DNA from: Thermoanaerobaculia bacterium
GTDB taxonomy: Bacteria; Acidobacteriota; Thermoanaerobaculia; Multivoradales; JAIOJS01
DNA length: 64,000 nucleotides
Direction of reading: 5' to 3'
Assembly (NCBI GenBank): GCA_963837455.1
Contig: CAWINM010000001.1
Coordinates: 452,832-516,831, forward strand
Shown: positions 184-53,847 of the stretch, one piece after another
Layout of the letters: every line of letters starts with the position of its first letter
Numbering within the stretch: position 1 is the stretch's first letter
Notes under the pieces: model-generated
The model's database searches: none
Seen by the model: only the letters and a program-made list of their open reading frames with translations
What the model was told of the DNA's origin: nothing
Made by a program: the position numbers and the translations under genes

Positions 184-1389
184 ATGGCCAATAGCGTCGT
201 CAGGGTCACCCAGCAGGGTTGGGGCAGCCGCCTCGGTGGCTCGGTGAAGGGGGCGGTGGTGGGCGTGCTGCTCGCCTTCGCCGCCGTGCCGCTGCTGTTC
301 TGGAACGAGGGGCGCGCCGTGCACCGCGCGCGCACCCTGGCCGAGGGGGCGCGCGCCGTGGTCAGCGTGCCCCCCGGCGCCGTCGACGCCGGCCACGAGG
401 GCAAGCTCGTGCACACCTCGGCGCAGGCCACCACCGACGAGGTGCTGCGCGACCCGACCTTTGGCATCGCCCGCAACGCCCTCGCGCTCGAGCGCAAGGT
501 GGAGATGTACCAGTGGGTGCAGAAGGAGGAGAGGAAGGAGCGCAAGAAGCTCGGCGGCGGCACCGAGACGGTGACCACCTACAGCTACAGCAAGGAGTGG
601 CAGAGCTCGCCGGTCGACTCGGCCTCCTTCGAGGAGCCCGGCGGCCACGACAACCCCGGCTTCCCGTTCGAGGGGGAGACCTGGCGGGCCGCCGACGTGC
701 GGCTCGGCGCCTTCCACCTCGCACCCGAGCTCGCCGGCGAGCTCGACCAGCACAGCGACCTGCCGCTCGGCCAGGAGCAGCTCGACGCCGTCGACCCCAG
801 CCTGCGCGGACGCCTGCGGATCGTCGCCGACACCTTCTACCTCGGCAGCGCCGGTGACACCCCCAGCGTCGGCGACGTGCGAGTGAGCTTCGCGATGGTC
901 GAGCCGGCCCTCGCCAGCGTGGTGGCGGCGCAGCGTGGCGACCGCCTCGAGCCCTACCACGCCGAGGCCGGTGGCGACATCGCCCTCGTCGCCTACGGCG
1001 GCAAGACCGCCGACGAGATGTTCCAGGCCGCGCGCAACGCCAACACCGCGCTCACCTGGGTGCTGCGCCTGGTCGGCTTCGTGCTGCTCTTCCTAGGCAT
1101 CCTCGGCGTGCTCAAGCCGCTGCGGGTGGCAGCGGACGTGGTGCCGTTCCTCGGTCGCCTGGTCGGCGGCGGGCTCGCCCTCGCCGCCTTCCTGGTGGCA
1201 GCGCCGGTGGCGCTGGTCACCATCGCCGTCGGCTGGCTCGTCTACCGGCCGCTGCTCGGTATCGCGCTGCTGGCCGCGGCCGTCGGCTTCGTGGTCTGGC
1301 TCTGGCGCCGCAGCCGCAAGCCCGCCGCCGCGGCGGCCGGCGCGACCTTCGTGCCGCCGCCACCACCTCCGGCGCCTGCCCCGGGGTGA
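184..1389 (+). CDS. TMEM43/DUF1625-family membrane protein (N-terminal TM, large soluble domain, C-terminal TM cluster, poly-Pro tail)
   Basis: ATG at 184 follows GGAGGAG. Topology and sequence pattern (N-terminal TM helix, long extracytoplasmic region, then three or four C-terminal TM helices) resemble bacterial TMEM43 homologues. Stop TGA at 1387-1389. Confidence 0.6.
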   Translation: MANSVVRVTQQGWGSRLGGSVKGAVVGVLLAFAAVPLLFWNEGRAVHRARTLAEGARAVVSVPPGAVDAGHEGKLVHTSAQATTDEVLRDPTFGIARNALALERKVEMYQWVQKEERKERKKLGGGTETVTTYSYSKEWQSSPVDSASFEEPGGHDNPGFPFEGETWRAADVRLGAFHLAPELAGELDQHSDLPLGQEQLDAVDPSLRGRLRIVADTFYLGSAGDTPSVGDVRVSFAMVEPALASVVAAQRGDRLEPYHAEAGGDIALVAYGGKTADEMFQAARNANTALTWVLRLVGFVLLFLGILGVLKPLRVAADVVPFLGRLVGGGLALAAFLVAAPVALVTIAVGWLVYRPLLGIALLAAAVGFVVWLWRRSRKPAAAAAGATFVPPPPPPAPAPG

Positions 1390-1464
1390 GCAAGCCCACC
1401 GGCCGCGGGGCCGGCGCCCTGGTGGCGGGCCGCTCGGGCTAAGATCGCGCGCCGCGGAGGCCCG

Positions 1465-3390: not shown

Positions 3391-3417
3391 CCGGCGCGCC
3401 GGCAGGCGCGGCTGCGC
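3390..3417. terminator. possible intrinsic terminator: two short GC hairpins (GCCGGCGCGCCGGC palindrome, then GGCGCggctGCGCC) right after pepF
   Basis: Perfect 14-nt palindrome overlapping the pepF stop. No U-tract, which is common in high-GC genomes. Weak call. Confidence 0.2.
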
Positions 3418-3587
3418 CCCTCTCCCTCCCAGCACGCGCCCCACTCGGCCCGTGGTCAGGCGCCGCGCCGGCTGAGCCTCGCCGCCACGATGCTCGATCT
3501 CGACGGCATGGTGCCGGTGGGTTCCCGCTGGCGCCGATTCCGATGAGGCAGCAGACTCTCGCCCGCCACCACCCGGGGGGCCTTCGC

Positions 3588-5954
3588 TCAGCGACGGCCG
3601 GGGGGGCGTTCCGGCTCCGCCTGGCGTCGCAGGTCGCGGGCGCGGGAGATGAGTCGCACCAGCTCCTCGACCCGCGGCTGCCGCGGCCAGTCCTCGCTCA
3701 GCTGCGCCGCCCGCCGCGCCAGCTCGCCGAGGTCCTCGTCGCCGGCCGGCCCCTGCCGGGCCCAGTACGAGCCGCGCAGCATCTCGGCGAAGCGCCCCAC
3801 CACCGTGGCCAGCCGGAAGCCTCGGCTCGCCGCCTCCCAGCGCGACGCCAGGTCCACCCAGCGCAGGGGCTGCTGCTGCTCCACGAAGGCGCCACCGGCG
3901 GCGGGGCGCCAGCGCAGTCGCAGCACTGCGAGGGTGGCGCCGTGCGGCACCTCGCGGCGCAGCTTGAGCTCGTAGAGGGCGGACACCGTGTGCCCGGCAC
4001 CCACCTCGCCAGCGTCGAGGCTGTCGTCGCGGAAGCGCGTGTCGGCGACGTCGCGGTTCTCGTAGCCGAGCAGCCGCCAGCGGGAGACGAAGCGCGGGTC
4101 GACCTCCACCTGGGCGCGGGCCTCGGCGGCCACCGTCTCCAGGGTGCCGGTGAGGCTCTCGACGAAGGTCCGCCGCGCCTCGTCGATCTCGTCGACGTAG
4201 GCGTAGCGGCCGTTGCCGCGGTCGGCGAGCTGCTCCATGAGCTCGTCGTTGTAGTTGCCCATGCCGAAGCCGACGGTGGTGAGCTCGACGCCCCGCCGCG
4301 CCGCCGCCCCCACGCTGGCGAGGATGCTCTCCGGCCCGGTGTTGCCAACGTTGGCGACGCCGTCCGAGCAGAGGATGACGCGATGGATGGCGCCGCGCCG
4401 CCCCAGCCGCGAGACGAGGTCGAAGGCGACCGCCAACCCCTGCTCGGTGTTGGTGGCCCCCTCCGGGGCGAGCCGCTCGATGGCAGCCGCTACCTGTTGC
4501 ACGTCGGCGGTAAGCGGAAGCAGGACACGCGCCTGGGAGCCGAAGACCACCAGCCCGACGCGGTCGCTGGCGGTGAGCTCGCCGAGCAGCAGCCGCAGCG
4601 AGCGCTTGACGAGCTCGAGACGGTTCTCCGCCGCCATCGATCCGGAGACGTCGACCACGAACACCAGGTCGGCCGGGCGCCGCTCGGCGCGCTGCACCTC
4701 GCGCGCCTTGATGGCGAAGCGCGCCAGCACGTAGCGGTCGCCGGGAGCCCAGGGGTCGGGCGCCCCCTCGGCGGTGAGCGCAAAGTCGCCCTGCCGCGGC
4801 GGCGCGTCGCCGTAGTCGAAGGCGTTGACCAGCTCCTCCACCCGCACCGCCGCCGCCGGCGGCAGGTTGCCGTCGTCGAGGTAGCGGCGCACGACGTTGT
4901 AGGCGCCGGTGTCGACGTCGAGGGCGAAGGTCGAGAGCGCATCGTCCTCGCTGTCGACGAACGGGTTGACGCCGTAGCTGTGGAAGAACACGTCGCCATA
5001 GGGCTGGTCGTTGGGCTCGGCGGTGCCGCCGGTGGACGGCGGCAGCGTCGCGGCGGCCGACGAGGGCTCGGCGGGGGCCCGCGGCACGGCCGGCGCGGGA
5101 GCCGACACGTAGCCGAGCTCCCTCACCTTGGCGGCGGCCGCGCCGTCGGCGCGCTCGGCCGGCGTCGCTGCCACCTGGTCCCGCGCCACCTGGTCCCTGG
5201 TGGTGGAGCTGCGATCCGCATCGGTCGGCATGGCGGCGACACCGCTGGCGATCCGCCGCGCGTCGGGCAATGGGCTCTCCGCGGCGGTGACGACCTCCTC
5301 CTTGGCCGCGATGCGGTTCGCCCGCGGCGCCGTGGTCGGCGCCTGGAGCTGCGCCTCTTCGCCGCGAGCGCCGCCCGCCATGCCGGAAGGCGCGTTGGAC
5401 ACGGTACCCGCTCTCCCTTCCTCGACGCCGGCGAGGCGGAGTGCCGGGGCCGGCGCCGACGCCACCTCGGGGGCGGCGATGCCACGCGGGACGGGCTGCG
5501 CCTGGCGCTCGCGGGACCAGAGGCCGGGGAACGCCGGGATGGGCGACGGCGCGGCGGCCGCCGGAGCCATCCCGGCGTTCCCCAGCGCACGGCGGTCCCG
5601 AGGCTGCCTCGTCTCGGCCGATCCGCCGGGCGCTTCCGCAGGGGACGTCGGAGCGTAGAGGGCTTGCTGCTGGGGCTTCGGCTCAGGCACCGCCTCGACC
5701 CCCAGCTGGTGGCGCAGGGCCAACCACGACAAGGTGCCGCCACCGACCAGCGTCGCCAGCGAGGCGGCGGCCAGCCAGAGCCGGCGCGGCAAGGGCCGCC
5801 GGAAGACCAGCAGGTGACCGCCCCCGGGCGGGGCCGGAGCCTGGATCTCGGCGGGGATCTGGCGACGCAGCTCCTCGAGCAGACCCGCGGGCGGCTCGGG
5901 CACGGTGTCGGGGCGCAGCCGGCGCGCCAGTTGACGATCGGTGATCCGGCTCAT
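3588..5954 (-). CDS. anti-sigma factor with single TM helix, long Ala/Pro-rich linker and extracytoplasmic vWA + YfbK-like (DUF3520) domain
   Basis: 788 aa. The N-terminal roughly 60 aa precede a TM helix (WLAAASLATLVGGGTLSWLAL), followed by a low-complexity linker. A vWA MIDAS motif (DLVFVVDVSGSM) and the YfbK-type C-terminal domain follow. The start codon overlaps the sigma stop (ATGA at 5951-5954). Confidence 0.75.
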   Translation of the reverse strand: MSRITDRQLARRLRPDTVPEPPAGLLEELRRQIPAEIQAPAPPGGGHLLVFRRPLPRRLWLAAASLATLVGGGTLSWLALRHQLGVEAVPEPKPQQQALYAPTSPAEAPGGSAETRQPRDRRALGNAGMAPAAAAPSPIPAFPGLWSRERQAQPVPRGIAAPEVASAPAPALRLAGVEEGRAGTVSNAPSGMAGGARGEEAQLQAPTTAPRANRIAAKEEVVTAAESPLPDARRIASGVAAMPTDADRSSTTRDQVARDQVAATPAERADGAAAAKVRELGYVSAPAPAVPRAPAEPSSAAATLPPSTGGTAEPNDQPYGDVFFHSYGVNPFVDSEDDALSTFALDVDTGAYNVVRRYLDDGNLPPAAAVRVEELVNAFDYGDAPPRQGDFALTAEGAPDPWAPGDRYVLARFAIKAREVQRAERRPADLVFVVDVSGSMAAENRLELVKRSLRLLLGELTASDRVGLVVFGSQARVLLPLTADVQQVAAAIERLAPEGATNTEQGLAVAFDLVSRLGRRGAIHRVILCSDGVANVGNTGPESILASVGAAARRGVELTTVGFGMGNYNDELMEQLADRGNGRYAYVDEIDEARRTFVESLTGTLETVAAEARAQVEVDPRFVSRWRLLGYENRDVADTRFRDDSLDAGEVGAGHTVSALYELKLRREVPHGATLAVLRLRWRPAAGGAFVEQQQPLRWVDLASRWEAASRGFRLATVVGRFAEMLRGSYWARQGPAGDEDLGELARRAAQLSEDWPRQPRVEELVRLISRARDLRRQAEPERPPGRR

Positions 5955-6505
5955 GGAGTGGGCTCCTCGAGGGCCAGGCGCAGCGCCGCGAAGGCGCGCT
6001 TGAGCCGCTTGCGGACGGCAACGGGGGTGATGTGCTCCAGGCGGGCGACCTCCGAGACCGGCAGCTCGCTCCAGAAGTGCGCGCTGACCGTGAAGCGGAG
6101 GTCCTCGGGCAGCTTCATGACGGCGCGCCGCAGCCGCGCGGCCTCATCGCTGCCCGCCAGCGTCTCGGCGGCGTCGGGCTCGGGATCGGCGAGACGCTCG
6201 GCGGTCTCGTCGCTGAGCTCCTGCAAGGGCCGCGGCCGGCGGAGGTGGTGGAGGAACGTGTTGTAGGCGATGCGGTAGAGCCAGGTGGACAGCTGGGCGC
6301 GGCCTTCGAAGCGTGGCAGCGCCTGCCACGCCTTGCGATAGGTCTCCTGGGTGAGGTCGGCGGCGAGCTCGGCGTCGCCGCCACAGAGGCGGAACAGGGC
6401 GGCGTAGATCTGCCGGTAGCTGGTCTCGATCAGCCGCTCCGCCGCGGCGCGGTCGCCGCGAGAGAGGGCTAGCAGCAGCGGCGCCGAGTCCGCTCCGTCG
6501 GTCAT
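5951..6505 (-). CDS. ECF (sigma-70 family, group IV) RNA polymerase sigma factor
   Basis: Regions 2 and 4 of ECF sigma factors are present (YRQIYAALFRL..., C-terminal HTH). Preferred start is MTDGADS at 6505, preceded by GGGAGGAGG. The ORF extends upstream to 6691, probably spuriously. Translationally coupled to the downstream anti-sigma. Confidence 0.8.
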   Translation of the reverse strand: MTDGADSAPLLLALSRGDRAAAERLIETSYRQIYAALFRLCGGDAELAADLTQETYRKAWQALPRFEGRAQLSTWLYRIAYNTFLHHLRRPRPLQELSDETAERLADPEPDAAETLAGSDEAARLRRAVMKLPEDLRFTVSAHFWSELPVSEVARLEHITPVAVRKRLKRAFAALRLALEEPTP

Positions 6506-6786
6506 CGCCGCGCCTCCTCCCGGTCGCAGCCCCGGTTGCAGGGCCATGTTTCCGCCGCCAGCCGACGGGTTCAGCGTGGAGGTGTCCATGGCACCCCTTT
6601 GGACCCGCCGCGTCGTGGAAAGGAAACCGGGACGGCGGCACTGTATCGCGAGCGCCTGGCCCGGCGAGAGTGGCGCCGGCGGGGAGCGCACAGGGGGCGG
6701 GAGGCCGTCGTCAGCCTAGGCGCTCATCCCCCGGCTCGACCGCGGGCCCGCACCACCCGGCGCCCCCCTGGGGGAACGCGGCCGCC

Positions 6787-6951
6787 TCACGCTCGCCGCA
6801 GCAGGTGCCCGAGCAGCCCGAGGACGAACAGGATCAGGAACAGGAAGAACAGAATCTTGGCGATCCCCACGGCGCCAGCGGCGATGCCGCCGAAGCCAAA
6901 GAGCGCCGCCACCAAGGCGACGACGAGGAAGATCAGTGCCCAACGCAGCAT
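6787..6951 (-). CDS. UPF0391/DUF1328 small membrane protein (YtjA-like), 54 aa
   Basis: Not in the ORF track (under 60 aa). [54 protein letters not shown] matches the YtjA family pattern (M.RW.iiFLviAliAa.lGFGGiag.aagiAKilF). Strong GGAGGTGG RBS. Coordinates read by eye, possibly +/-1. Confidence 0.6.
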
Positions 6952-7020
6952 GGTTTCCACCTCCCTTGGCGGTCTTCCGCGACCGCGAGCCCCGCGGCCG
7001 CGATCCGCCGTTTCCTGTCC

Positions 7021-7311
7021 TCAACGATGCGGCGTCGGCGTGGGTGAGCTGCCCGGCATCTCGAGGCGAACCCGCGGCACCTCGATCGTCTTCTTCTCCG
7101 CGTGCACCTCGACCTTGGGCACCTCGATCTCCACGGGGGTGCTGGTCACGCGCACCTGCGCGGGCTTGACCTCGTACTCCGGCAGCTGGCCACCCTGGAC
7201 CTCGACCTTGGGCAGCTCGCCCGCCTTCGTCCTCGTCACCTGACAAGCGGCCAACGGCAGCGCCAGGACGGCGACTGCCAGGATGCTCGCGAACCTCGAT
7301 TGCCGTCGCAT
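7021..7311 (-). CDS. small lipoprotein with repeated (P)KVEV/EIEV motifs, 96 aa
   Basis: Signal peptide plus lipobox (MRRQSRFASILAVAVLALPLAAC). The long upstream extension in the ORF track (to 7692) looks spurious. Repetitive E/K/V-rich mature part. Confidence 0.5.
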   Translation of the reverse strand: MRRQSRFASILAVAVLALPLAACQVTRTKAGELPKVEVQGGQLPEYEVKPAQVRVTSTPVEIEVPKVEVHAEKKTIEVPRVRLEMPGSSPTPTPHR

Positions 7312-7510
7312 GCTCTGGCCCTCCGGCGGGTCCGAGCCATTCGGACCTCGTGTCGGTACCACAGCAAGGTGCGGGCCAGGTCGGCTCGCAGGCGGCGCCG
7401 GCGGCCGCATGGAGCAAGACTGGAGCAGGGGGTCGCCTCTCGCACCACGCGCCGAGCCTGCTGGACGGCGCCCTCTGCGACCGCCCCAGCCGTTAAGATG
7501 CCGGACCTGA

Positions 7511-8905
7511 ATGGCAGATGCCACCTTCCTCGGCGCCTGCGGCACCGTCACCGGCAGCATGACGCTCCTCGCGTGGGGCGAGCGGCGGGTGCTCGTCGAC
7601 TGCGGGATGTTCCAGGGCGGCCAGGAGCTCGAGCAGCGCAACCGCGAGCCCTTCCCGTTCCGCCCCAAGGAGCTCGAGGCGGTGGTGCTCACTCACGCCC
7701 ACCTCGACCACAGCGGGCGCCTGCCACTGCTCATCGCCCGCGGCTTCCGCGGCCCCATCTACTGCACCCGCCCCAGTCGCGGCCTCACCTCGCTGGTGCT
7801 GCGCGACGCCGCCAAGCTGCAGGAGGAGGAGGCCGGATGGGCGCGGCGCAAGGGATACAGCCGCCACGCCGAGCCTGCCGCCCTCTACACCGAGGAGCAG
7901 GCGCGGCAAGCCCTGGCGCAGCTGCACCGTGTGGCCTTCGACGAGTCCTTCGAGGTGTTGCCGGGCGTGTCGGTGCGGATGCGCCGTGCCGGGCACCTGC
8001 TGGGCGCGGCCACCGTCGAGCTCACCGCCAAGGGTAGCGACGGCGAGCGGCGCTGCTGGTGCTTCTCGGGGGACGTCGGGCGCTACGGCGTGCCCATCCT
8101 GCAGGACCCCGAGCCACCCACCGTCGCCCCCGACACGCTGCTGCTCGAGTCCACCTACGGCGATCGCGTGCACCCCGCGGGGGACCCCCGGCAGGCGTTG
8201 CGCCAGGTGATTGCGGAGACCTTCGCCCGCGACGGCGTGCTGCTCATCCCCTCCTTCGCGCTCGGCCGCACCCAGGACCTGCTCTATCACCTCGCGGCGC
8301 TGGCCGACGACGGCCAGCTGGCCGCCGACCGCGTCTTCGTCGACAGCCCGATGGCGATCAGCGCCACCGAGCTCTACGAGGAGTTCCCCGCCGAGCACGA
8401 CGAGGAGCTGGCGGCGCTGGTGGCCGCCGATAGGAACCCCTTTGCCCTCGAGCGCTTCGGTCGGTGCCGTACCAGCGAGCAGTCGCAGGCCCTCAACTCG
8501 CGCCGCCAGATCGTCATCATCGCCGGCAGCGGCATGGCCAACGGCGGCCGCATCCTCCATCACCTGCGACACCGGCTCGCCGATGCGCGCAACAGCGTCC
8601 TCTTCGTCGGCTTCCAGGCCGCCGGTACCCGCGGCCGCGCGCTGGTGGAAGGGGCGCAGCGCGTGAGTGTCCTCGGAACGGTGGTGCCGGTGCGCGCACA
8701 GGTGCAACGACTGGAGATGCTGTCCGCCCACGCCGACCACGACGAGCTGCTGCGCTGGGCCCGCGCCCTGCCCGGCCCCCCTCGTCGTGTCTTCCTCAAC
8801 CACGGCGAGGACTCCGCCCGCGCGGCGCTCGCCCGCTCGCTGCAGAACGAGCTCGGCTGGCCGCTGCCGGAGCTGCCCGCCCAGGGGCAGACGGTGGCGT
8901 TCTAG
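7511..8905 (+). CDS. MBL-fold metallo-hydrolase of the beta-CASP / RNA-metabolising family
   Basis: 464 aa with the HxHxDH motif (THAHLDHSG) and beta-CASP and C-terminal RNA-specificity domain conservation. Confidence 0.8.
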   Translation: MADATFLGACGTVTGSMTLLAWGERRVLVDCGMFQGGQELEQRNREPFPFRPKELEAVVLTHAHLDHSGRLPLLIARGFRGPIYCTRPSRGLTSLVLRDAAKLQEEEAGWARRKGYSRHAEPAALYTEEQARQALAQLHRVAFDESFEVLPGVSVRMRRAGHLLGAATVELTAKGSDGERRCWCFSGDVGRYGVPILQDPEPPTVAPDTLLLESTYGDRVHPAGDPRQALRQVIAETFARDGVLLIPSFALGRTQDLLYHLAALADDGQLAADRVFVDSPMAISATELYEEFPAEHDEELAALVAADRNPFALERFGRCRTSEQSQALNSRRQIVIIAGSGMANGGRILHHLRHRLADARNSVLFVGFQAAGTRGRALVEGAQRVSVLGTVVPVRAQVQRLEMLSAHADHDELLRWARALPGPPRRVFLNHGEDSARAALARSLQNELGWPLPELPAQGQTVAF

Positions 8906-8951
8906 CGCCGCGCTAAGATCCGTTCGGACGCTCGAATCGACGAGGAGAGCC

Positions 8952-9878
8952 ATGCGTTCACCCTGGAGCTGCCTCGCAGCCGTCGCCGCCGGTTTCGTCC
9001 TGGTGACCGGCGTTGCCCGCGCCGGCGATCCCACCACCGACCTGATGGAGAGCATGAGGAAGCTCTCCACGCTCAAGTCCTACAAGGTGCGCGACAGCTT
9101 CAGCTTCGGCGGCCAGATGAGCGCCCAGATGGAGATGCTGAAGTCGATGGGCCTCGGCGACATCCTGCCCAAGGGCGGGACGCAGGAGGTCGTCAACCCC
9201 GACCTGCGACGCACCACCGTGCCGCAGCGGATTCCGAGCCGCAAGGGCGTGATGGGGGCCATGCAGATGATCGAGGCCAACCTCATCATCGTCGTGAAAG
9301 CGCCGCCCGGCGCGCCGCCGAAGGCCGCGACCTTCATCGACTGTGAGGAGTGTGAGCGCAACCAGGACCAGGCCGTCGACGAGGAGCTGGAGCGGCAGGC
9401 CTCCCAGTCCTCCGCGAGCCTCATCCACGAGGTCGTCAACGCTGTCGCCGGGGGCCCCTCGGGGATCGCGGCCGCCATCACCGAGATCGCCGGGAGCCGC
9501 GTCCAGAACCGGCTCGCCCACGCCGAGAACGAGAGGGGCAAGCAGAAGATCTCGCTCAACCGTTGGAAGTGCCGGGATACCGGCGATGCAGCGGAGCCGC
9601 CGCGGACGGGGAACGAGAAGCCCCCCTTCCACGACGTCAAGTACCTCGGCGAGCAGAGCGTCGGCGGCGAGAAGGCCAAGGTCTATCAGTTCAGCGTCGA
9701 CGACGAGAACACCGGCCAGTCCTATCCCATGACCTTCTACAGCTCGGCAGCTACCGGCCTGCCGATGAAGATGGAGCTCCAGGTCGACGTCGGGCAGGGG
9801 ATGACCGGCGGCATGACGATGGAGTACTACGACTTCGACGTACCCATCCAGATCGACGTGCCTGACTGCCTGAAGTGA
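8952..9878 (+). CDS. exported Met-rich hypothetical protein (signal peptide; multiple MxM/MxxM motifs, 4 Cys)
   Basis: ATG at 8952 after GAGGAGAG. Signal peptide MRSPWSCLAAVAAGFVLVTGVARA. Composition is unusual for this genome (Met/Lys/Glu/Gln-rich, locally lower GC). Confidence 0.6.
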   Translation: MRSPWSCLAAVAAGFVLVTGVARAGDPTTDLMESMRKLSTLKSYKVRDSFSFGGQMSAQMEMLKSMGLGDILPKGGTQEVVNPDLRRTTVPQRIPSRKGVMGAMQMIEANLIIVVKAPPGAPPKAATFIDCEECERNQDQAVDEELERQASQSSASLIHEVVNAVAGGPSGIAAAITEIAGSRVQNRLAHAENERGKQKISLNRWKCRDTGDAAEPPRTGNEKPPFHDVKYLGEQSVGGEKAKVYQFSVDDENTGQSYPMTFYSSAATGLPMKMELQVDVGQGMTGGMTMEYYDFDVPIQIDVPDCLK

Positions 9879-11202
9879 ACCGGCCGCCGCGGCGGCGGGC
9901 GCTGGGCGGGGAGGAGCTGCTGCTAGCCCCTCCGCGCCGTCCGCGTTCGTTGAAGTCTTTCCTGCGGCCACGTCCGGAGCGGAAGTTGCCGCGGGAGCTG
10001 CAGCCCGGGCGGGTCGGCCGGCTTGCTCGCGCCCTGCCGCAGGGCGTGCACGATCCCGGCTTCGCTGGCCTGCTGGCGCGCATCGACGGCGACGGATCGG
10101 TCCGGGGTGGCAACCGCGTCACCGTCTACTGCGACGGCGAGGAGGCGACGCGCGCCATGCTCGACGCCATCGCCGCGGCACGCCAGGAAGTGCTGCTCGA
10201 GGCCTACATCTTCACCGACGACTCCACCGGCACGCGCTTCGCCGAGATGCTGACGGCGGCGCGCCGGCGCGGGGTCCACGTCCGCGTGCTCGCCGACGCC
10301 ATCGGCTCCTTCGCCACCGCCGCCGCCTTCTGGCAGCGCATGCAGGAGGACGGCATCGAGGTGCACCTCTTCCACCGGCTCTTCCCCGACCTCTGGTGGC
10401 AGGCGTTCCGCGACCACCGCAAGATCCTCGTCGTCGACCGCGAGGTCGGCTTCACCGGCGGCATGAACATCGCCGACGAGTACTCCTCCTTCTCGCTGCG
10501 CAGGAAGCGCATCGCGCCCGGGGCGATGCGCGACACCCACGTGCGCGTGGAGGGCGGGGTGGCCTGGGAGCTCGCGGCGGTCTTCGCCGAGGGGTGGAGC
10601 GGGCGGGCGGCGAGACCCTGCCGCTGACTCCCGAGCCGCCGGCGCTGGACAGCCCGGTGCGATCCCTGGTGCTCGACTCGCGTCCAGGGCGCGGGCACAT
10701 CGAGACCGCTGCCGCGCTCGCCGCCATCGTCGGCGCCGCCCAGCGCTCGCTCTGGCTCACCAACGCCTACTTCGCCCCCGGCCACGTCGCAGTGGGTATC
10801 CTTTCCCGCGCCGCCGCACGCGGCCTCGACGTGCGCCTGCTGCTCCCCGGCAAGACCGACGTCCCGCTGGTGCGGCACGCCGGCCACGGCTGGTACTCTC
10901 GGCTGCTCGCCAAGGGGGTGAGGATCTTCGAGTACCAGCGCGCGCTGCTGCACGCCAAGACTCTGGTGGCCGATCGCCACGTCGCCGTGGTGGGCTCCAC
11001 CAACCTCGACTTCCGTTCCTTCCAGCTCAACGCCGAGTGCAACGTCGTGCTGCTCGACGACGGAGTGGGCGAGATCCTGGCGCAGGCTTTCGAGCGCGAC
11101 CTCGCCGACAGCCACGAGGTGGACCCCGCGACCTGGAGCCGGCGAGGTACCCTGCACCGGCTGGGCGACCGCCTGGCCGGCGTGCTGACACCGTTCCTCT
11201 GA
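9875..11202 (+). CDS. cls: cardiolipin synthase / phospholipase D family protein (two HKD motifs), interrupted by a frameshift near 10595-10620
   Basis: HKD motif 1 (HRKILVVD) is in the frame starting at 9875. HKD motif 2 (HAKTLVAD) is in the frame of ORF 10396..11202. The two halves are contiguous apart from a 1-nt frame change. GTG start overlaps the upstream stop. Confidence 0.65.
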
Positions 11203-35917: not shown

Positions 35918-37152
35918 GATGGGCACGGATGGCGCTGCGCAACCTGGCGCGCAATCGCCGGCGCACGGCGATCTCGCTGCTGGTGGTGGCGGCCGGCAGC
36001 GTCGCCCTGCTGCTCACCAGCGGCTTCATCGTCTTCAGCTTCCGCGGCCTCGAGGGGGCGCTCATCCACGGTGGCCTCGGGCACCTCGAGGTGGCGCCCG
36101 CCGAGGCCGCCGGCAGCGGCCACCTCGACCGGCCGGTGAGCGGCGCGCTCGCGGACTGGCGAGCGTTGCAGCGCCGACTGGCGACGCTGCCCGCGGTGGC
36201 CTCGGTGGCGGCCAACGTTCACCTCATGGGGATGGCCTCGACGCCCGCGGGTCGCAGCGCCTCGTTCGTCGCCGTGGGCGTCGAGCCCGACCGCGAGCGT
36301 GCCATGGGCTTCGCCACCAAGCTGCGCGCGGGAAGGGATCTTCCCGACGCCGCGCCGGCGGAAGGGGAGGACGTGGTGCTGCTCGCCAGCGGCCTCGCCG
36401 CGGCGCTCGACGCACGGCCTGGCGACGTCGTCACGCTCCTTGCCCTCACCCCCGACGGATCGCTCAACGCCCTCGACGTGCGCGTCGCCGGCACGATCAC
36501 CACCGGGGTGCAGGACCTCGACAGCCGCTTCGCCAAGCTCCACCTGGCGAGCGCCCAGCGCCTGACCCAGAGCGCGTCGGTCTCGGACCTGCTGGTGATG
36601 CTGCGCGACGGCACCTCGCTCGCCGCCGGCAGCCGCGCCGTCACGGCGGCCGTGGCCGGCCACCGGCCGCCGCTCGCGGTGGTCGACTGGAAGGCGCGCG
36701 CCCCCTTCTACGAGCAGGTGCGCAACCTCTATCTGGGTATCTTCTGGTTCCTCGGCTCGGTGATCCTCGTGCTCGTCGTCCTCTCGGCCTCCAACACCCT
36801 GCTGATGGCGGTGCTCGAGCGCACCCGCGAGCTGGGGACGCTGCGCGCCATCGGCACCAGCCGCGCCCAGGTGGCGGCGATCGTGCTCCTCGAGGCGCTG
36901 TGGCTGGGGCTGCTCGGCGGCGCCCTCGGCTGCGTGCTGGGCTGGGCGGCGACGCTGGCCATCAACGCCAGCCACCTGCAGATGCCGCCGCCACCCGGCG
37001 CCGTCGATCCCATCGACGTCGAGCTGGCGCTCGTGCCGATGGCGTTTGCCGGCACGGTGGCGCTGATGCTGGTGGTGCTCGCCGTCGCCGCCGCGGTGCC
37101 GATCGGGCGCGCGGTGCGGCTGCGGGTCGCCGAGGCCCTCACCTCGCTGTAG
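35914..37152 (+). CDS. ABC transporter permease, FtsX family (LolC/E-like)
   Basis: The GTG start overlaps the upstream stop (GTGA). N-terminal TM helix, periplasmic MacB-PCD-like domain and C-terminal FtsX 3-TM bundle. Confidence 0.8.
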   Translation: MRWARMALRNLARNRRRTAISLLVVAAGSVALLLTSGFIVFSFRGLEGALIHGGLGHLEVAPAEAAGSGHLDRPVSGALADWRALQRRLATLPAVASVAANVHLMGMASTPAGRSASFVAVGVEPDRERAMGFATKLRAGRDLPDAAPAEGEDVVLLASGLAAALDARPGDVVTLLALTPDGSLNALDVRVAGTITTGVQDLDSRFAKLHLASAQRLTQSASVSDLLVMLRDGTSLAAGSRAVTAAVAGHRPPLAVVDWKARAPFYEQVRNLYLGIFWFLGSVILVLVVLSASNTLLMAVLERTRELGTLRAIGTSRAQVAAIVLLEALWLGLLGGALGCVLGWAATLAINASHLQMPPPPGAVDPIDVELALVPMAFAGTVALMLVVLAVAAAVPIGRAVRLRVAEALTSL

Positions 37153-44610: not shown

Positions 44611-45171
44611 TCAGCGCGGAAAGAGCTCGCTGACGTCGATCGTCGCCGCGGAGCCCGGAACCTCGAGCCGATCGCCGGCGCCGCCGGTGTGCTGCGCGAG
44701 GTAGCCATCCGGCGATGGAGCGCTATACACCTCGACGAGATCCCGGCCGAGATCGAGTATCCAGACGGTCTGTATCCCCGCCCGGGAGTACAGCGGCAGC
44801 TTGACCGTCCGGTCGTAGCTGGCCGACGAATCCGCGACCTCGACGAGCAGGAGCACGTCGGCCGGCCGGGGATGCCCCGAAGCGTAGGAGTCGGCGCGCG
44901 ACCGGGCAAGGCAGACATCGGGCTCCGGCTCGCTGAAGTCGTCGAGGACCACCGGGCTCTGCACCCTGACGAGCGCTCGCCTGCCCACCGCCTCTACCAG
45001 CAGGTGCGTCAGGCAAGCTACGGAGGCCGCGTGGCGGCCGCCGATCGGCGACATCATCACGATCTCCCCCTCGATGAGCTCGACGCGATCGTCCTGGTCG
45101 AGGATTCCCACCTCGGCGAGTCGGTAGTACTCGTCCACCGTGAACCGATAGTGGGCGACAGGCAAGCTCAT
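44611..45171 (-). CDS. Uma2-family (DUF820) putative restriction-endonuclease-like protein
   Basis: Characteristic HRFTVDEYYRLAEVGIL...DDRVELIEGEIVMMSP...PDV...VEV...S motifs. An alternative upstream start lies at 45210. Confidence 0.7.
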   Translation of the reverse strand: MSLPVAHYRFTVDEYYRLAEVGILDQDDRVELIEGEIVMMSPIGGRHAASVACLTHLLVEAVGRRALVRVQSPVVLDDFSEPEPDVCLARSRADSYASGHPRPADVLLLVEVADSSASYDRTVKLPLYSRAGIQTVWILDLGRDLVEVYSAPSPDGYLAQHTGGAGDRLEVPGSAATIDVSELFPR

Positions 45172-45524
45172 CGGGAGGAATTCTACGACGCTCCCGCGCC
45201 GGCGGTGCATCGCCCGTAGCCCACCTCGGCTGGCGAACCGTCTTTCGTTCCTGGCAAGGCCCCCGGCGAGCACCCGGATCTTGCGAGGAGGTGTGACGCG
45301 GCAACAGGCGCAACGGGCGGCTAGAGACCGCAGCGACGAGCTGCGGTCGCACCGCGAGTCTGCTGTCGCGGAGACTCGCACTCTGTATTCTTGGGCCGAG
45401 GGAATGGCTTGGGCAGCCTTGTTGCTGGCGAGGTAGTCGCGGATCGCTGCGACGACGCGGGGAATACGCAACGCGGCATCTCCGCCGAGCTGCGCAGTCC
45501 TGATAAAGAGGAGCCATCGAACCC

Positions 45525-47881: not shown

Positions 47882-48691
47882 TCAGTCGCCAAGGGGCCCG
47901 AGCTCGGGGTAGTACAGACGGCGGCAGTCGGTACAGATGCCATGGCTGAAGAGCACGTCCGTGCGCGCGCTGATGTACGCCTCGAGCTGGTTCCAGGCTC
48001 CCTGGTCGTCGCGGATCTTCTTGCAGTGCGAGCATATCGGCAGGATTCCCTGCAGCGTCCGGATCTCGGCGGTCCGCTCGGCGACGAGGTTCTCCAGGCT
48101 CTGGTTGGCGCGGGCGAGGTCCTCCGTTCGCAGCACCACCTGCTCCTCGAGCGTCGTCGTCAGCCGGCGAAGCGCGGCGGTCCGCTCGGACAGCTGGATC
48201 CGGTACTGGCTGCCCAGCAGCCCCGTGGCCGCACAGCGACCGAGGGTCAGGACGAAGCACAGGCCGGTGATCCATCGCTCGGCCGGCGTCCGCAGGGGAA
48301 TGGCCAGCGGTGGCCGAAGGAGAAGGAGAACGGCGACCGCCGCTACAGCGGTGACGCCCCATGCGAAGGCGGCCTTGGCGGGCGTCAACCGCAGCGTGCC
48401 AAAGCCGAAGACGACGAACAGCACCATGAGGAAGACGAAGCCCACCTCGGGAGCGATGACCAGGAAGACGAGCTCCACCACGGCGCTCGGGAGCAGCTGC
48501 CAGATGGTGAGGAACCAGTCGCCGCTGCGCTCGCCCGCTCCGGTGCGAAACACGGCGAAGAACCCCGCCGACACCGCCGCGCCGGCGAGCGCATAGAGGA
48601 GCGGGACGCGCGGCGAGGTGGTGCCGACGCCGGCGTAGAGCAGGAGGAAGACGGTGGTGAGCGCGTACGATCCGGAGATCGACACCAGCAT
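47882..48691 (-). CDS. polytopic membrane sensor-like protein with coiled-coil and C-terminal Cys-rich module (ILPICSHCKKIRDDQGAWNQLEAYI...FSHGICTDC)
   Basis: About six TM helices, then a coiled-coil (LEEQVVLRTEDLARANQSLENLVAERTAEIRTLQG), then the Cys/His-rich terminal motif. The start (48691) is uncertain; the ORF extends to 49180. Confidence 0.6.
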   Translation of the reverse strand: MLVSISGSYALTTVFLLLYAGVGTTSPRVPLLYALAGAAVSAGFFAVFRTGAGERSGDWFLTIWQLLPSAVVELVFLVIAPEVGFVFLMVLFVVFGFGTLRLTPAKAAFAWGVTAVAAVAVLLLLRPPLAIPLRTPAERWITGLCFVLTLGRCAATGLLGSQYRIQLSERTAALRRLTTTLEEQVVLRTEDLARANQSLENLVAERTAEIRTLQGILPICSHCKKIRDDQGAWNQLEAYISARTDVLFSHGICTDCRRLYYPELGPLGD

Positions 48692-48974
48692 GCGACGCCG
48701 CAGCTGCCTCCGGCGGGCGATCCTCTCCGGAGCGCTCCGGGGAGCGCCCTCGGAGCTCCCAGGGCGCGCAGGGCTGCCGGGAGAGGTGGGGGCGGCGGCT
48801 TCCACCTTGACGACTCGTTGCGATCCCACTGCCGAGCCTGCACCGGGCACACTATCAGCCGCTCGCGCGCCAGCCGCGGCGCGGAGAGCCTCTGCGCCGG
48901 TCACCGTGGTAGCTTTCCCGCGCCCCGCGATGCTCGCGCGCCGACTCCCGTCACCCACCACCATCACGACCGCC

Positions 48975-49799: not shown

Positions 49800-51113
49800 T
49801 CACCGTCGGGCGCGCTCGGCGGCGACCTCGGTGACGCCGCGCTCCATGCGACTCACCAGCTCGGGGATCGCCGCCGCCGCCACCGAGCAGAAGGCGACCC
49901 GCAGGTAGCGCTGCCCCACCGACACCACGCCGCTGTCGTGACGGTCGAGCAGATGCTGGCGGACCTCCTCGGCGGCCACCCCCAGCGACTCCGGCAGCTC
50001 GAGAAGCGCGAAGCAGCCGGAGTTGAAAGGCAGCGGGCGGAGGAGCCGTTGGTCGACCCTGGCGAGCGCCTGCTGCAACGCCCGGTAGCGCTCGGCCAGA
50101 AGCAACCGCACCGCTTCCACCTGGGCCTCGGCGTCAGCCGCCTCGAGGGCGTGCAAGAGCAGCATCTGGCTGGTGGCGACGGGGCTGCCGATGGTCGCGC
50201 GCACCAGCCCCTTGACCTTGCTCTCCAGCGCCAGGGCGATCTCCGAGCCGGGGGAGAAAGGGAAGGTGAGGAAGCCGATGCGGCCGCCGAAGAAGGAGTA
50301 CTCCTTGGTGGCGCCATCGACCTTTACCGGCACCAGGTTGGGGTGCAGCCCGACGAGCTCCCAGAAAGGCGACTCGCGGGGCACCTCCTCCTCGTAGACG
50401 AGCCCGGCGTAGGCGTCGTCGCAGATCACCAGTAGCGGTCGCCGTTCGGCCTCGGCGAAGAGGCTCGCCACGAGGACATCGCGCTCGGGGCGAGTGGGGC
50501 TGTAGCCACCCGGGTTGCTGGGGAGGTTGAGCAGGACCACCGCCGGCTCCCCGGAAGGCAGCCCGGCGAGCGCCTCGGCCCAGGCGCCAGGGGCGAAGCG
50601 GCCGTCGCTGTACGCGGGAGCGGTGAGCAGGCGAGCGCCGGTGCGGAGCGCGAAGGTCTGCCGGTAGTTGCCCCAGAACGGCGCCGCGATCGCCACCGCG
50701 CGCCCTTCGCCGCCGAAGAGGTCGGCAAGCACCGCCAGCCCATGGGTGAGGCCCGCGACCACCATTGGCAGGGTGGAGGGCCGGTCGTCGGGCTGCTCGC
50801 GGCGTTGCCAGGCCCGCCAGGCGCGGCGGACCTCGGCGATCCCCTCCACCGGGGAGTAGAGCAAGGCGCGGTTGCGGGCGGCCGCAGGGAGCCCCGCGAG
50901 CCCCTCGGCCAGGGCCGGTACCGGCACCGCCTGGCCGTAGCCGTCGGTGATCTGGCCGATGGTGGCGTTGTAGGTCTTGCCGCGCGCCTGCGCCGCCTGG
51001 AACGGGATGTCGGGCGGGAAGTAGGCGCGCCGGCCGAGGGGCGACAGCAACTCGAACAGCGCCGGGCAGGCGGCGGCGATGGCGTCGTCGGTGGCTGCGG
51101 CGAGGTCGGCCAT
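49800..51113 (-). CDS. class I/II pyridoxal-phosphate-dependent aminotransferase
   Basis: 437 aa. Fold-type I conservation with a PLP lysine region (KEYSFFGGRIGF). Confidence 0.85.
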   Translation of the reverse strand: MADLAAATDDAIAAACPALFELLSPLGRRAYFPPDIPFQAAQARGKTYNATIGQITDGYGQAVPVPALAEGLAGLPAAARNRALLYSPVEGIAEVRRAWRAWQRREQPDDRPSTLPMVVAGLTHGLAVLADLFGGEGRAVAIAAPFWGNYRQTFALRTGARLLTAPAYSDGRFAPGAWAEALAGLPSGEPAVVLLNLPSNPGGYSPTRPERDVLVASLFAEAERRPLLVICDDAYAGLVYEEEVPRESPFWELVGLHPNLVPVKVDGATKEYSFFGGRIGFLTFPFSPGSEIALALESKVKGLVRATIGSPVATSQMLLLHALEAADAEAQVEAVRLLLAERYRALQQALARVDQRLLRPLPFNSGCFALLELPESLGVAAEEVRQHLLDRHDSGVVSVGQRYLRVAFCSVAAAAIPELVSRMERGVTEVAAERARR

Positions 51114-51390
51114 GGGGGATGCTCCTAGAGCCAGGCGATCCTTGAGGGGGGCGGATTATGCCATCGCCACCGGCCGCGCGGGCCCGCTCGCGAGCGGGCG
51201 CGGTGACATCGGCGCCCACGGAGGCAACTCGCTCCACTCGCCGGTGTCCGCTGGCGCCGCCGCCCGTCGCGGATGCGGGACGGTCCTCGCGCCGGCCGAC
51301 CAGCGCAGCGCTCGGCCCGCAGTGGCGGCGCGCTGGCACACCCCGTGCTCCCAAGCAGTGCCGATCGATCGCATCAAACAAGAGGTTGCC

Positions 51391-53847
51391 ATGATTCCAC
51401 GCAGCCGCGAGCGGACGCCGGGCCGATTCCTCGCCGTGCTTGCCCGTTCCTTTCCGGAGACGGCCCGCGACCTGCAACTGGGAGCCCGCTGGTTGCTGCG
51501 CCGCCGGCTCTTCGCGGTGGCGGCGATCGGTATCCTCGCCTTCGGCACCGCCACCGCGGGCTCCATCCTGGCGCTGGTGCACGGCGTCCTCCTGCGTCCT
51601 CTCCCCTACCCGCACCCGCAGCGCCTGGCGGTGGTGTGGGAGCGCAACGTGCCGCGCCAGAAGGGAGAGAACGTCGTCTCGATGGACAACTTCGAGAGCT
51701 GGCGCGCGCGCGCCACCTCGTTCGCGAGCCTCGCCGCATTGGTCCCGGACCGCGCGACGCTGCGCGCCGGCACGCCGGTGAGCATCCGTGGCGCGGCGGT
51801 GACGCCGAGCTGGTTCCGCGTCGTCGGCGTCGTGCCCGCCCTCGGCCGCGGTTTCGATGAGGCCGAGGCGCACGACGGTGCGGCGGTGGTGCTGCTCAGC
51901 GACGCGCTGTGGCGGATCCGCTTCGCCGCCGACCGCCACGTGCTCGGGCGCGACATCGAGCTCGGCAGCCACCCTTTCCGGGTCGTCGGCGTCATGCCCC
52001 AGGGCTTCGAGCCCCCGGCGTTCGGCTGGCTCGGCCGCGAGCAGGCCTACTGGGTGCCCTTCGCCGCCACGCCACAAAACCGGCAGTGGGGGCGCTTCCT
52101 CCTCGTCCTCGGCAGGCTCCGCCCAGGGGTCACGGTGGCGACCGCCGATCGCGAGATGGCAGCGGTGGCCGCCACCATCGGCCGCGAACGCGCCAGCAAC
52201 CGCGACTGGACCGCCGACGTGGTGGGGCTGCGCGAGCAGGTGGCGAGCCCGGTGCGGACGCCCCTGCTGGCACTGCTCGTCGCCGCCGCCCTCATCCTGT
52301 TGTCGGCGGTGACCAACGTCGCCGCGCTCGCCCTCACCCACCTGCGCGGCCGCGAGGTCGAGCTCGCCGTGCGCGGCGCGCTCGGCGCCGGCCACGGCCG
52401 CATCGCGCGCCAGCTGTGGGCGGAGGCGGCGCTGGTCTTCCTCGCCGGCGGCGCCCTCGGTCTGCTGGGTGCGGGGGCCGGAGTCGGCCTGTTGCGTCGC
52501 GTGCTGCCCGCCGACCTGCCGCGCCTCGGCGAGGTGCGCCTCGGCGGCCTCGAGGCGGTGAGCGTGGCGGCGCTGCTCGGGCTCGCCCTCGTCGCGCTGT
52601 CGCTGCTGCACGCGGCCGTCGCCCGGCGCCATGCCACCACCCTGCCCACCCGGCGCCTCGCCGGCACGCGCGTCGTGGGCGCCCGCGGCGAGCGCCGCCT
52701 GGTGGTGGCCCAGGTGGCGCTGGCGGTGACGCTCGCCATCGGCGCCGGCCTCGCTGCACGTGGCTTCGCTCGCCTCCAGCACCGGCAGCTCGGTTTCGAG
52801 CCGCGCGACGTCCTGTCGTTCCGCATCGCCCTCGGCAGCGACCGTTACGACGATCCGGCGCGGCTCGCCTTCGTAGACGGCCTGCTGCGGAGTCTCGGCG
52901 GGATCCCCGGGGTCACCGCGACGGCGGCGGCCAGCCAGCGGCCGCTCACCGGCGCCGGCCCGGCGACCTCCGTACATGCCGTGGGCCCGCCCTCGCCCAC
53001 CGACCCGGTGGCGGACCTGCGCGCCGTCACCCCGGGGTTCTTCCGCCTGCTCGGCATGCGTCTGCTCGCCGGCTCGCCACCTCCCGTCGGCGTGACCGCG
53101 GAGCCGCCGCGGCAGGTGGTGGTGAGCGCCGGGCTCGCCCGCGAGCTGTGGCCAGGCAAGGACCCCATCGGCCAGACGCTGGTGATCGATCCCGAGCACC
53201 ACCTCGAGCCCGAGGTGGTCGGCGTCGCCGACGACATCCTCATGGAGGGACCCACCGTTCCCGGACGGGCCGCGGTGTACTTCGGCCTCGGGCAGTGGCC
53301 GAGCGAGAGCTTTGACCTGCTGCTGCGCAGCGGCCTCCCGCTTTCCGGCCTGCTGCCGGCGCTCCAGCACGCGGTGTGGTCGCAGGATCCCGAGCTGGCG
53401 CTCACCAACCTCGCCGCGCTCGGCGAGGAGACCCGCGAGGCGATGGCGCAGCAGCGCGCCACCACCGCCGTGCTCGCCGCCTTCTCTGCCTGCGCACTGC
53501 TGCTGGCGGCGGCGGGCGTCTACGCCGCGCTCGCGCTCGAGGTCACCCTGCGCCGCCGCGAGCTGGCGGTGCGCGCCGCCCTCGGCGAGCTGCCGCGATC
53601 GCTGGTCGGACGCCTCGCCGGCGGCAGCGTCCGTCTCGCCGCTCTCGGCTGGCTGTTCGGCAGCGCGGCGGCGGCCATGCTGACGCGGTTCATGACCGCC
53701 ATGCTGCAAGGGGTGGAGCCGCTCGACCCCGCGACCTTCTCGACGGCTCTCGCGCTGGTGCTCGCCATGGCCCTGGCGGCGGCGGCGCTGCCGGCGTGGC
53801 GCGCCGCGCGCGTCGATCCCCTCGCGGCGCTGCAGGGCGAGGGCTAG
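51391..53847 (+). CDS. ADOP-type duplicated FtsX permease (two MacB-PCD + FtsX modules), orphan (no adjacent ATPase)
   Basis: 818 aa with two repeats of a periplasmic domain followed by a 3-TM FtsX bundle. AGAGG RBS before the ATG at 51391. Confidence 0.8.
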   Translation: MIPRSRERTPGRFLAVLARSFPETARDLQLGARWLLRRRLFAVAAIGILAFGTATAGSILALVHGVLLRPLPYPHPQRLAVVWERNVPRQKGENVVSMDNFESWRARATSFASLAALVPDRATLRAGTPVSIRGAAVTPSWFRVVGVVPALGRGFDEAEAHDGAAVVLLSDALWRIRFAADRHVLGRDIELGSHPFRVVGVMPQGFEPPAFGWLGREQAYWVPFAATPQNRQWGRFLLVLGRLRPGVTVATADREMAAVAATIGRERASNRDWTADVVGLREQVASPVRTPLLALLVAAALILLSAVTNVAALALTHLRGREVELAVRGALGAGHGRIARQLWAEAALVFLAGGALGLLGAGAGVGLLRRVLPADLPRLGEVRLGGLEAVSVAALLGLALVALSLLHAAVARRHATTLPTRRLAGTRVVGARGERRLVVAQVALAVTLAIGAGLAARGFARLQHRQLGFEPRDVLSFRIALGSDRYDDPARLAFVDGLLRSLGGIPGVTATAAASQRPLTGAGPATSVHAVGPPSPTDPVADLRAVTPGFFRLLGMRLLAGSPPPVGVTAEPPRQVVVSAGLARELWPGKDPIGQTLVIDPEHHLEPEVVGVADDILMEGPTVPGRAAVYFGLGQWPSESFDLLLRSGLPLSGLLPALQHAVWSQDPELALTNLAALGEETREAMAQQRATTAVLAAFSACALLLAAAGVYAALALEVTLRRRELAVRAALGELPRSLVGRLAGGSVRLAALGWLFGSAAAAMLTRFMTAMLQGVEPLDPATFSTALALVLAMALAAAALPAWRAARVDPLAALQGEG

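Follow-up and report, generated by a model that had tools for sequence, protein, structure and literature searches.

A membrane sensor-like protein of a Thermoanaerobaculia bacterium ends in a widespread and highly conserved four-cysteine module, a candidate signaling output domain

The stretch of DNA analyzed here (the window; 64,000 nucleotides, positions 452,832 to 516,831 of contig CAWINM010000001.1, GenBank assembly GCA_963837455.1) comes from a Thermoanaerobaculia bacterium and contains a gene for a membrane sensor-like protein of 269 residues. The protein consists of a six-helix membrane domain, a long helix and a C-terminal module with four cysteine residues (the Cys4 module). The coordinates of these features are given in Table 1. 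The C-terminal end of the translated open reading frame (ORF) is ...LPICSHCKKIRDDQGAWNQLEAYISARTDVLFSHGICTDCRRLYYPELGPLGD. The third-position GC content (GC3) of the ORF is 0.90 in a window of 73% GC, which indicates a genuinely coding frame. The public databases (NCBI/ENA) carry an identical, unnamed 269-residue protein (P0036), and 28 orthologues share 53-79% sequence identity with it.

The annotated ATG is probably not the true start of this gene. The 17 codons on its 5′ side encode SAPERIARRRQLRRRM, a stretch that is kept in the orthologues. An N-terminal extension, typically of about 30 residues, is present in 25 of the 28 orthologues, and 27 of them are longer than 269 residues (271-317 residues). 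The conservation of these upstream residues and the greater length of the orthologues suggest a start upstream of the ATG, probably by about 38 codons, in which case the public 269-residue call is too short. A GTG at 48805..48803 is a candidate start codon and would give a product of 307 residues. The extension encodes a conserved basic stretch, SAPERIARRRQLRRR, located immediately ahead of the first transmembrane (TM) helix.

A hydropathy scan of the protein finds six hydrophobic stretches (residues 1-20, 29-49, 59-81, about 83-105, 105-134 and 141-159). They are matched by six helices (residues 2-22, 28-50, 62-79, 81-99, 104-125 and 136 onward) in an AlphaFold2 model of the whole protein, which was built on 35 homologues and has a mean pLDDT of 81. 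The sixth helix does not end at the membrane, and is modeled as one continuous helix over residues 136-216 (pLDDT 93-95). The two methods agree on the roughly six TM helices that had been proposed from the sequence in an earlier reading of this locus (to be referred to as the original prediction), and the long helix of the model is consistent with the coiled coil proposed there.

The membrane domain is presumed to be the sensor input. It has conserved polar motifs in or next to the membrane helices (DWFLTIWQ, APEVGFVF, PAERWIT and LTLGRC). No Pfam model matches this domain, and a search with the domain alone retrieves the same orthologues and nothing further. The domain itself appears to be a membrane sensor domain that has not been described. 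In one homologue, P0065 (37% identity over 72% of the query), the membrane domain is fused to a GGDEF domain, so the module occupies the slot that is held by GGDEF on the same membrane domain.

The putatively cytoplasmic part of the sixth helix contains RT-x-(D/E)L motifs and shows a heptad-like spacing of aliphatic residues (L167, L174, L177, L181, L199, L202, I210, L213 and L217). By analogy with histidine kinases and diguanylate cyclases, it probably forms a parallel dimeric coiled coil. It ends in the junction EI(K/R)TL-x-G, which is conserved throughout the family, with EV/IKTL-x-G-x-LPIC as the fuller form. By the positive-inside rule, the six TM helices and the strongly basic N-terminus would place both termini, and with them the module, in the cytoplasm. 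An NCBIfam match in this region, to NosR (E 5e-4), is far below the cutoff of that model and covers the linker helix only; it was rejected.

No kinase, GGDEF or other output domain is found in the protein by Pfam (even at E ≤ 10) or NCBIfam, as the original prediction had stated. A sensor histidine kinase is rejected since neither HisKA nor HATPase_c is detected with Pfam and NCBIfam, and a diguanylate cyclase since there is no GGDEF (PF00990) match with Pfam at E ≤ 10. Sensor histidine kinases and sensor diguanylate cyclases share with the window protein the common logic of an N-terminal sensor, a long helix and a C-terminal output, and they draw on the same input repertoire. However, they end in a catalytic domain, whereas the window protein ends in the Cys4 module of roughly 48 residues.

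The Cys-rich motif described in the original prediction is present at the C-terminus, where the translation ends in ...TLQGILPICSHCKKIRDDQGAWNQLEAYISARTDVLFSHGICTDCRRLYYPELGPLGD. In the window protein it reads G-x-LPIC-x2-CKKIRDD-x-G-x-W-x3-E-x-YI...FSHGIC-x2-C-x4-YP. The protein scores 107 bits (E 5e-35) against a hidden Markov model (HMM) of the module, and the window holds a single copy. Among the top-scoring representatives that were inspected, every copy with a detected motif has the spacing C-x2-C-x26-H-x2-C-x2-C, which is C-x2-C-x29-C-x2-C for the four Cys residues.

Conservation was computed by column over 306 module instances aligned to the HMM. The four Cys residues are conserved at 99-100%, Trp36 at 100%, Pro21 at 99% and Gly34 at 97%. 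Arg30 (96%), Lys27 (95%), Glu40 (95%), Asp32 (93%), Tyr42 (92%) and Asp31 (89%) follow. The His residue ahead of the second knuckle is conserved at 87%, and is a Pro in the orthologues P0049 and P0058. Of the CxxC...H...CxxC arrangement that had been proposed, the two CxxC pairs are essentially invariant, but the His is not strictly conserved. As the His varies while the Cys residues do not, the ligand set is most likely Cys4 rather than Cys4-His.

A few natural copies deviate from the motif. In P0002 a Gly residue replaces the second Cys (HGKK), and in P0064 the second knuckle is lost by an apparent frameshift. These two variants, as well as P0049 and P0058, could be sequencing errors or decaying copies.

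The fold of the module was predicted with AlphaFold2 from an alignment of 72 sequences (pLDDT 75.5). The model starts with a helix, which is followed by a short hairpin at LPIC, by a helix of 12 residues (WNQLEAYISAR), by a short strand at SHG and by a terminal helix. In this model the β-hairpin lies at the first knuckle, and the last helix starts at the second CxxC. The predicted order resembles that of a treble-clef-like finger. The original prediction had named a zinc-ribbon or rubredoxin-like fold as one to look for; the two predicted helices are unlike rubredoxin.

Within the interpretation developed below, it is quite likely that the four Cys residues bind one metal ion, judging from their conservation at a fixed spacing, from the predicted hairpin and helix at the two knuckles and from the sub-threshold Pfam similarities, which are to zinc fingers and ribbons. 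This ion would probably be structural Zn(II).

The module appears to be an undescribed family, without a model, a solved structure or a described function in the sources searched. No model of Pfam-A (2025 copy), NCBIfam 20.0, PADLOC or PHROGs, searched with the whole protein and with the tail, is above threshold on the module. With the module profile, no entry of the Protein Data Bank (PDB) reaches E < 0.08, and even at E ≤ 10 the matches include no rubredoxin, ClpX, DksA or Fin. A search of the PDB by fold with Foldseek gives no significant match. A full-text literature search with motif strings and keywords finds no description of the module, although one outside the searched literature is possible. 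The 2006 survey of signaling helices has no mention of such a domain. The original prediction had called the module functionally uncharacterized, and these searches, by sequence, fold and text, agree with that assessment.

Below the Pfam threshold (E ≤ 1), the matches of 72 modules are a mixture of zinc fingers and ribbons: DUF3039 in 56 of the 72, zf-C4pol in 30, DUF7558 in 14, the YjdM ribbon in 13, the ClpX zinc finger in five and Fin in four. In the window protein, the match to DUF3039 spans 11 residues across the first knuckle.

Several known zinc proteins were compared with the module and rejected as homologues. Fin (YabK, PF10955) is the top match in Foldseek, but it is not significant (E 6.3, TM 0.28), and the probability from hhalign is 6%. 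In Bacillus subtilis, Fin is an anti-sigma-F factor that binds both Zn and RNA polymerase. Like the module, it is small and has four Cys residues, and here it only illustrates how a Cys4 mini-protein can work through contact with a conserved machine. The ZAS anti-sigma factors (zf-HC2) have the motif H-x3-C-x2-C inside a helical anti-sigma domain, compared to H-x2-C-x2-C in the module, and zf-HC2 is not among the matches listed. The DksA/TraR zinc finger (zf-dskA_traR, PF01258) is absent from the top 25 of the 59 families listed for the 72 modules at E ≤ 1, and from the window protein at E ≤ 10.

The closest published analogy is HalOD2, an output domain of haloarchaeal response regulators in which two CXXC motifs, separated by 20-25 residues, follow a HalX-like helical segment (PMC5847659). 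It is a predicted zinc finger with predicted DNA or RNA binding and unknown function, and it is found in few halobacteria (PMC5847659, Galperin et al. 2018). The combination of a receiver domain, a helical segment and two CXXC motifs is shared with proteins of the present family. On the other hand, the spacing in the module is 29 residues, and the module is bacterial, belongs to a huge family and is attached to many types of sensors; this comparison is by description only. DUF7558, which is seen below threshold in the 14 modules mentioned above, has no established relation to HalOD2.

A first search with the last 78 residues of the window protein finds 35 proteins with the motif L-x-G-x-LPIC-x2-CKKIRDD-x-G-x-W-x3-E-x-YI...FSHGIC-x2-C. 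A 64-column profile of the module was then searched against 1.84 billion representatives of clusters at 50% identity, as an extension of the tail search that had been recommended. The profile matches 24,393 of these representatives at E ≤ 1e-3, and 20,097 remain at E ≤ 1e-10. Together with the conservation of the Cys and Trp residues, these counts put the motif far beyond chance. In a collection with one genome per GTDB species, a single peptide pattern gives at least 595 confirmed loci.

The data on taxonomy, neighborhood and position are from the best 80 of these loci. The majority are in Desulfobacterota. The others are in Bacteroidota, Ignavibacteriota, Nitrospirota, Verrucomicrobiota, Planctomycetota (Anammoxibacter), Spirochaetota (Spirochaetia), Myxococcota, Acidobacteriota (Geothrix, Holophagaceae and Vicinamibacterales), Poribacteria, Riflebacteria, Lentisphaerae and Neomarinimicrobiota, among others. 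Paralogues can be clustered: a Desulfobacula genome has three of them in a region of about 60 kb (L010, L011), and at L064 two genes are adjacent. The module is not a feature of mobile elements, with one match on plasmids and two on viral contigs. The plasmid match lies in NZ_CP028898.1 of Dongshaea marina (36163..36288; 57% identity over 42 residues), at a position where PLSDB lists no gene.

The domains that accompany the module were surveyed, with Pfam annotation, in word-indexed matches, in the 148 best representatives and in 81 genes from GTDB species genomes. PAS is the commonest domain on its N-terminal side, and REC, GAF, HAMP, dCache, MASE3, MASE6, PocR and CHASE are also found there, as are Reg_prop/Y_Y_Y propellers, SBP_bac_3, VUPS, 7TMR-DISM and 5TMR-LYT. 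The original prediction had described such a module on PAS and GAF sensors; the range now includes REC, HAMP, Cache and MASE domains as well, in many bacterial phyla. No HisKA/HATPase, GGDEF, EAL, HD-GYP or HTH domain is found among the families listed (the top 25 of 37 for the 148 representatives and the top 25 of 55 for the 81 genes), where the accompanying domains are sensor and receiver domains only. A rare co-occurrence of the module with another output domain is possible. The ten longest module proteins (733-1704 residues), which were scanned completely, contain sensor domains only. MASE6 is present in 22 of the 148 representatives, and many matches of about 500-550 residues that align in two stretches carry MASE6 membrane domains.

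The module is located at the C-terminus. In 79 of 82 module genes from the 80 loci, it starts no more than about 66 residues from the end of the protein; in the remaining three, the ORF is loosely delimited and has a longer tail. Some proteins (P0118, P0120, P0124, P0125, P0128, P0139 and P0140) have two copies, one internal and one terminal, and look like fusions of tandem genes.

The REC-module proteins are 207-251 residues long and are encoded beside histidine kinases in two operons, L005 and L048 (Table 1). At L053, a REC-module gene stands in a chemosensory gene cluster, and at L017 a PAS-module gene follows CheB. These two loci suggest Che-like pathways with the module as output. The REC-module gene of L053 holds the same position as the REC-GGDEF gene of the WspR type that ends a che cluster, but its output is not a cyclase. 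The placement in che clusters is anecdotal, with two of 80 loci. At L048 (7530-10701), a gene for a LonC/LonB-like AAA protease lies about 40 nucleotides 3′ of the REC-module gene, a single case.

The terminal position, the pairing with every common class of sensor or receiver domain, and these operons all give the module the place of an output (effector) domain. The architecture therefore favors an output over an input (sensing) role.

The only recurrent neighbors of module genes in the 80 loci are other signaling proteins. In the window, a gene for a DAO-type FAD oxidoreductase lies 39 nucleotides downstream on the same strand, and a gene for an α/β-hydrolase is transcribed divergently beside the module gene. 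Further out are genes for an aminotransferase, a short-chain dehydrogenase/reductase (SDR), a Uma2-family nuclease and a duplicated MacB/FtsX permease, a type that is common in Acidobacteriota. Together with the GC content of 73%, these genes hint at a soil lineage of high GC.

Table 1. Coordinates of the window gene, its parts and two nearby genes, and gene order in four operons or clusters of other genomes
Feature	Position	Strand	Basis or gene order
ORF, 269 codons plus stop (stop codon 47882..47884)	47882..48691	minus	ATG-to-stop translation
Probable N-terminal extension, 38 codons from GTG 48805..48803	48692..48805	minus	orthologues align through it
Six-helix membrane domain, residues 1-160, presumed sensor input	48212..48691	minus	hydropathy and AlphaFold2
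Long cytoplasmic helix (signaling-helix/coiled-coil linker), residues 161-214, RT-x-(D/E)L motifs	48050..48211	minus	AlphaFold2
C-terminal Cys4 module, residues 215-262 of 269, about 48 residues	47906..48049	minus	profile and column conservation
First Cys knuckle, C220-S-H-C223	48023..48034	minus	read from sequence; both Cys 100% conserved
Second knuckle, H250-G-I-C253-T-D-C256	47924..47944	minus	read from sequence; Cys 99%, His 87% conserved
Uma2-family putative restriction endonuclease, nearby in window	44611..45471		
Duplicated MacB_PCD/FtsX permease, nearby in window	51079..53847		
L005 operon			HK, REC, REC-module, hybrid HK (HK, histidine kinase)
L048 operon			hybrid HK, REC-module
L053 operon	811-10461		CheW, MCP, CheA, CheB, REC-module, hybrid HK
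L017 chemosensory cluster	648-8231		CheB, then PAS-module gene

Based on these observations, we propose that the module is a metal-stabilized, non-enzymatic output domain at the end of a signaling helix, which acts by the regulated binding of a partner. We give this interpretation a probability of roughly one half. The window protein would be a stand-alone membrane sensor in the style of one-component systems, in which the six-helix domain receives the signal. The sixth helix would continue into the cytoplasm as a signaling helix and pair in a parallel dimeric coiled coil, with a module at the tip of each helix. The four Cys residues would chelate a single structural metal ion, probably Zn(II), and this would hold together a mini-domain made up of knuckle, hairpin and helix. 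The state of the sensor, transmitted through the helix, would determine how the two modules at the end of the helix pair are positioned relative to each other or how far they are exposed. As the output, the modules would bind a conserved cellular partner, most likely a protein, in a manner that depends on the signal.

Two further properties of the module support this interpretation. The charged and aromatic residues that are 92-100% conserved exceed what a fold of 45 residues needs, which indicates a constrained surface. Lys27, Lys28, Arg30, Asp31, Asp32, Trp36, Glu40 and Tyr42 would form this surface and contact the partner. In addition, the module is too small for catalysis in any familiar sense.

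A more far-reaching and only tentative proposal is that the module represents a major unnamed class of output domains. In PAS, GAF, Cache, membrane and receiver sensors of many phyla, it might act on one conserved target through protein contacts of a zinc finger, with no need for a kinase, second messenger or DNA binding. Examples of such a target would be the machinery of transcription or translation, or some other universal hub.

Several points weigh against the proposed output function. The evidence on the Cys4 site fits an output role and a redox-sensing role alike, and the rubredoxin-like spacing makes Fe a possible metal instead of Zn. The confidence of the module model is only moderate, with pLDDT values of 61-76 in the full protein and 75.5 for the module alone. 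The internal copies in the two-copy proteins mean that a free C-terminus is not obligatory. The neighborhoods of the orthologues differ, with no shared context across the contigs compared, and clustering of 849 neighboring ORFs from the 80 loci finds no recurrent non-signaling neighbor family.

Proteins that consist of little more than the helix and the module are also found, with lengths of 70, 101 and 134 residues, and no partner gene is seen beside any of the three. The 70-residue protein (P0022) has its own intergenic region and unrelated neighbors. The partner of the module, if any, is not encoded nearby. The ORF for the 101-residue protein (P0005; L084:2056-3086) overlaps the end of the preceding ORF of 284 residues, downstream of an ABC_sub_bind gene; P0005 is probably a frameshift-split sensor gene and not a true mini-protein.

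An alternative role for the four Cys residues is that their site is itself the sensor. It could be a switch for redox state, oxidants, iron or oxygen, with a rubredoxin-like Fe(Cys)4 center or with an oxidizable Zn(Cys)4 center of the kind found in Hsp33 and RsrA. In that case, the module would add an input that modulates oligomerization, with the real output elsewhere. A redox role was raised in the original prediction. In rubredoxin the spacing is C-x2-C-x29-C-P-x-C, and the spacing of the four invariant Cys residues in the module is equal to it. The strong representation of the family in the anaerobic Desulfobacterota is also consistent with such a switch. However, the family is common in aerobic Acidobacteriota and Bacteroidota as well. 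In contrast to rubredoxin, the module is predicted to have two helices, one of 12 residues between the knuckles and one at the end. There is no match to the Pfam Rubredoxin model, no zinc ribbon or rubredoxin is above threshold in PDB or Pfam, and the module profile retrieves no rubredoxin or other solved Fe/Zn protein from the PDB at E ≤ 10. Moreover, if the module were an input, the PAS, GAF, Cache and REC proteins that have no other domains would be left without an output, and the REC-module protein that ends a Che/two-component operon needs one. We therefore consider a sensing function unlikely.

The module could also be a small zinc finger that binds DNA or RNA. The module proteins would in this case regulate transcription (or RNA) as one-component proteins or response regulators, and the window protein would do so from the membrane, as a tethered regulator like ToxR or CadC. 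Fingers of the treble-clef and zinc-ribbon types often bind nucleic acids, and basic residues directly follow both knuckles (CKKIR and C-A-K-K). HalOD2, with its two CXXC motifs, is predicted to bind DNA or RNA (PMC5847659). On the other hand, the mean net charge of the module is -1.4, which speaks against general nucleic-acid binding but is not decisive, and the acidic residues Asp31, Asp32 and Glu40 are conserved. The module has no similarity to any DNA-binding family. In addition, genomes contain many paralogues with near-identical modules, as at L010, L011 and L064, and all of these would read the same site, which would be odd for specific regulators. This function is about as improbable as a sensing role of the Cys4 site.

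A third possibility, to which we assign still less weight, is that the module is a structural cap or dimerization clasp. The module proteins would then be kinase-less decoys that regulate kinases or cyclases through mixed coiled coils or sensor heterodimers. The frequent location of module genes beside other signaling genes and the very short helix-plus-module proteins, such as P0022, would fit with this arrangement. However, a clasp would not need surface-type charged residues that are 92-100% conserved across phyla. The neighborhood is also not consistently a signaling one, as the window gene and its orthologues are isolated genes in metabolic surroundings.

Finally, a truncated or decayed diguanylate cyclase (or a pseudogene) with a meaningless remnant as its tail can practically be ruled out, even though JGI names P0040, P0041 and P0051 diguanylate cyclase and a genuine GGDEF domain does follow this membrane domain in P0065. 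The window protein has no GGDEF, its tail is kept in the 28 orthologues and in over 20,000 clusters, and the ORF has a GC3 of 0.90 and a normal coding frame up to the stop codon.

Two findings would have spoken against the original prediction, namely a match of the C-terminal region to a characterized domain and a lack of conservation of its Cys and His positions. No characterized domain matches the region and the Cys residues are essentially invariant; it is the His that is not strictly conserved. All parts of the original prediction that could be checked hold.

The window gene is an ordinary member of its family, and its value lies in the family. The logic of sensor, helix and output is familiar, whereas the output domain appears to be an undescribed family of striking size and conservation. 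Bacterial signaling is catalogued by output domains, such as kinases, cyclases and phosphodiesterases, methyl-accepting chemotaxis proteins (MCP) and helix-turn-helix (HTH) domains, and outputs through the module are invisible to current censuses. The proteins that carry it go under the names of PAS domain protein, response regulator, hypothetical or, wrongly, diguanylate cyclase. An almost invariant ending of 45 residues in more than 20,000 clusters from many phyla points to a common downstream target. A name, a structure and a partner for the module would give a mechanism to a large block of the "dark matter" of bacterial signaling, among them the response regulators with which some two-component and Che-like pathways end.

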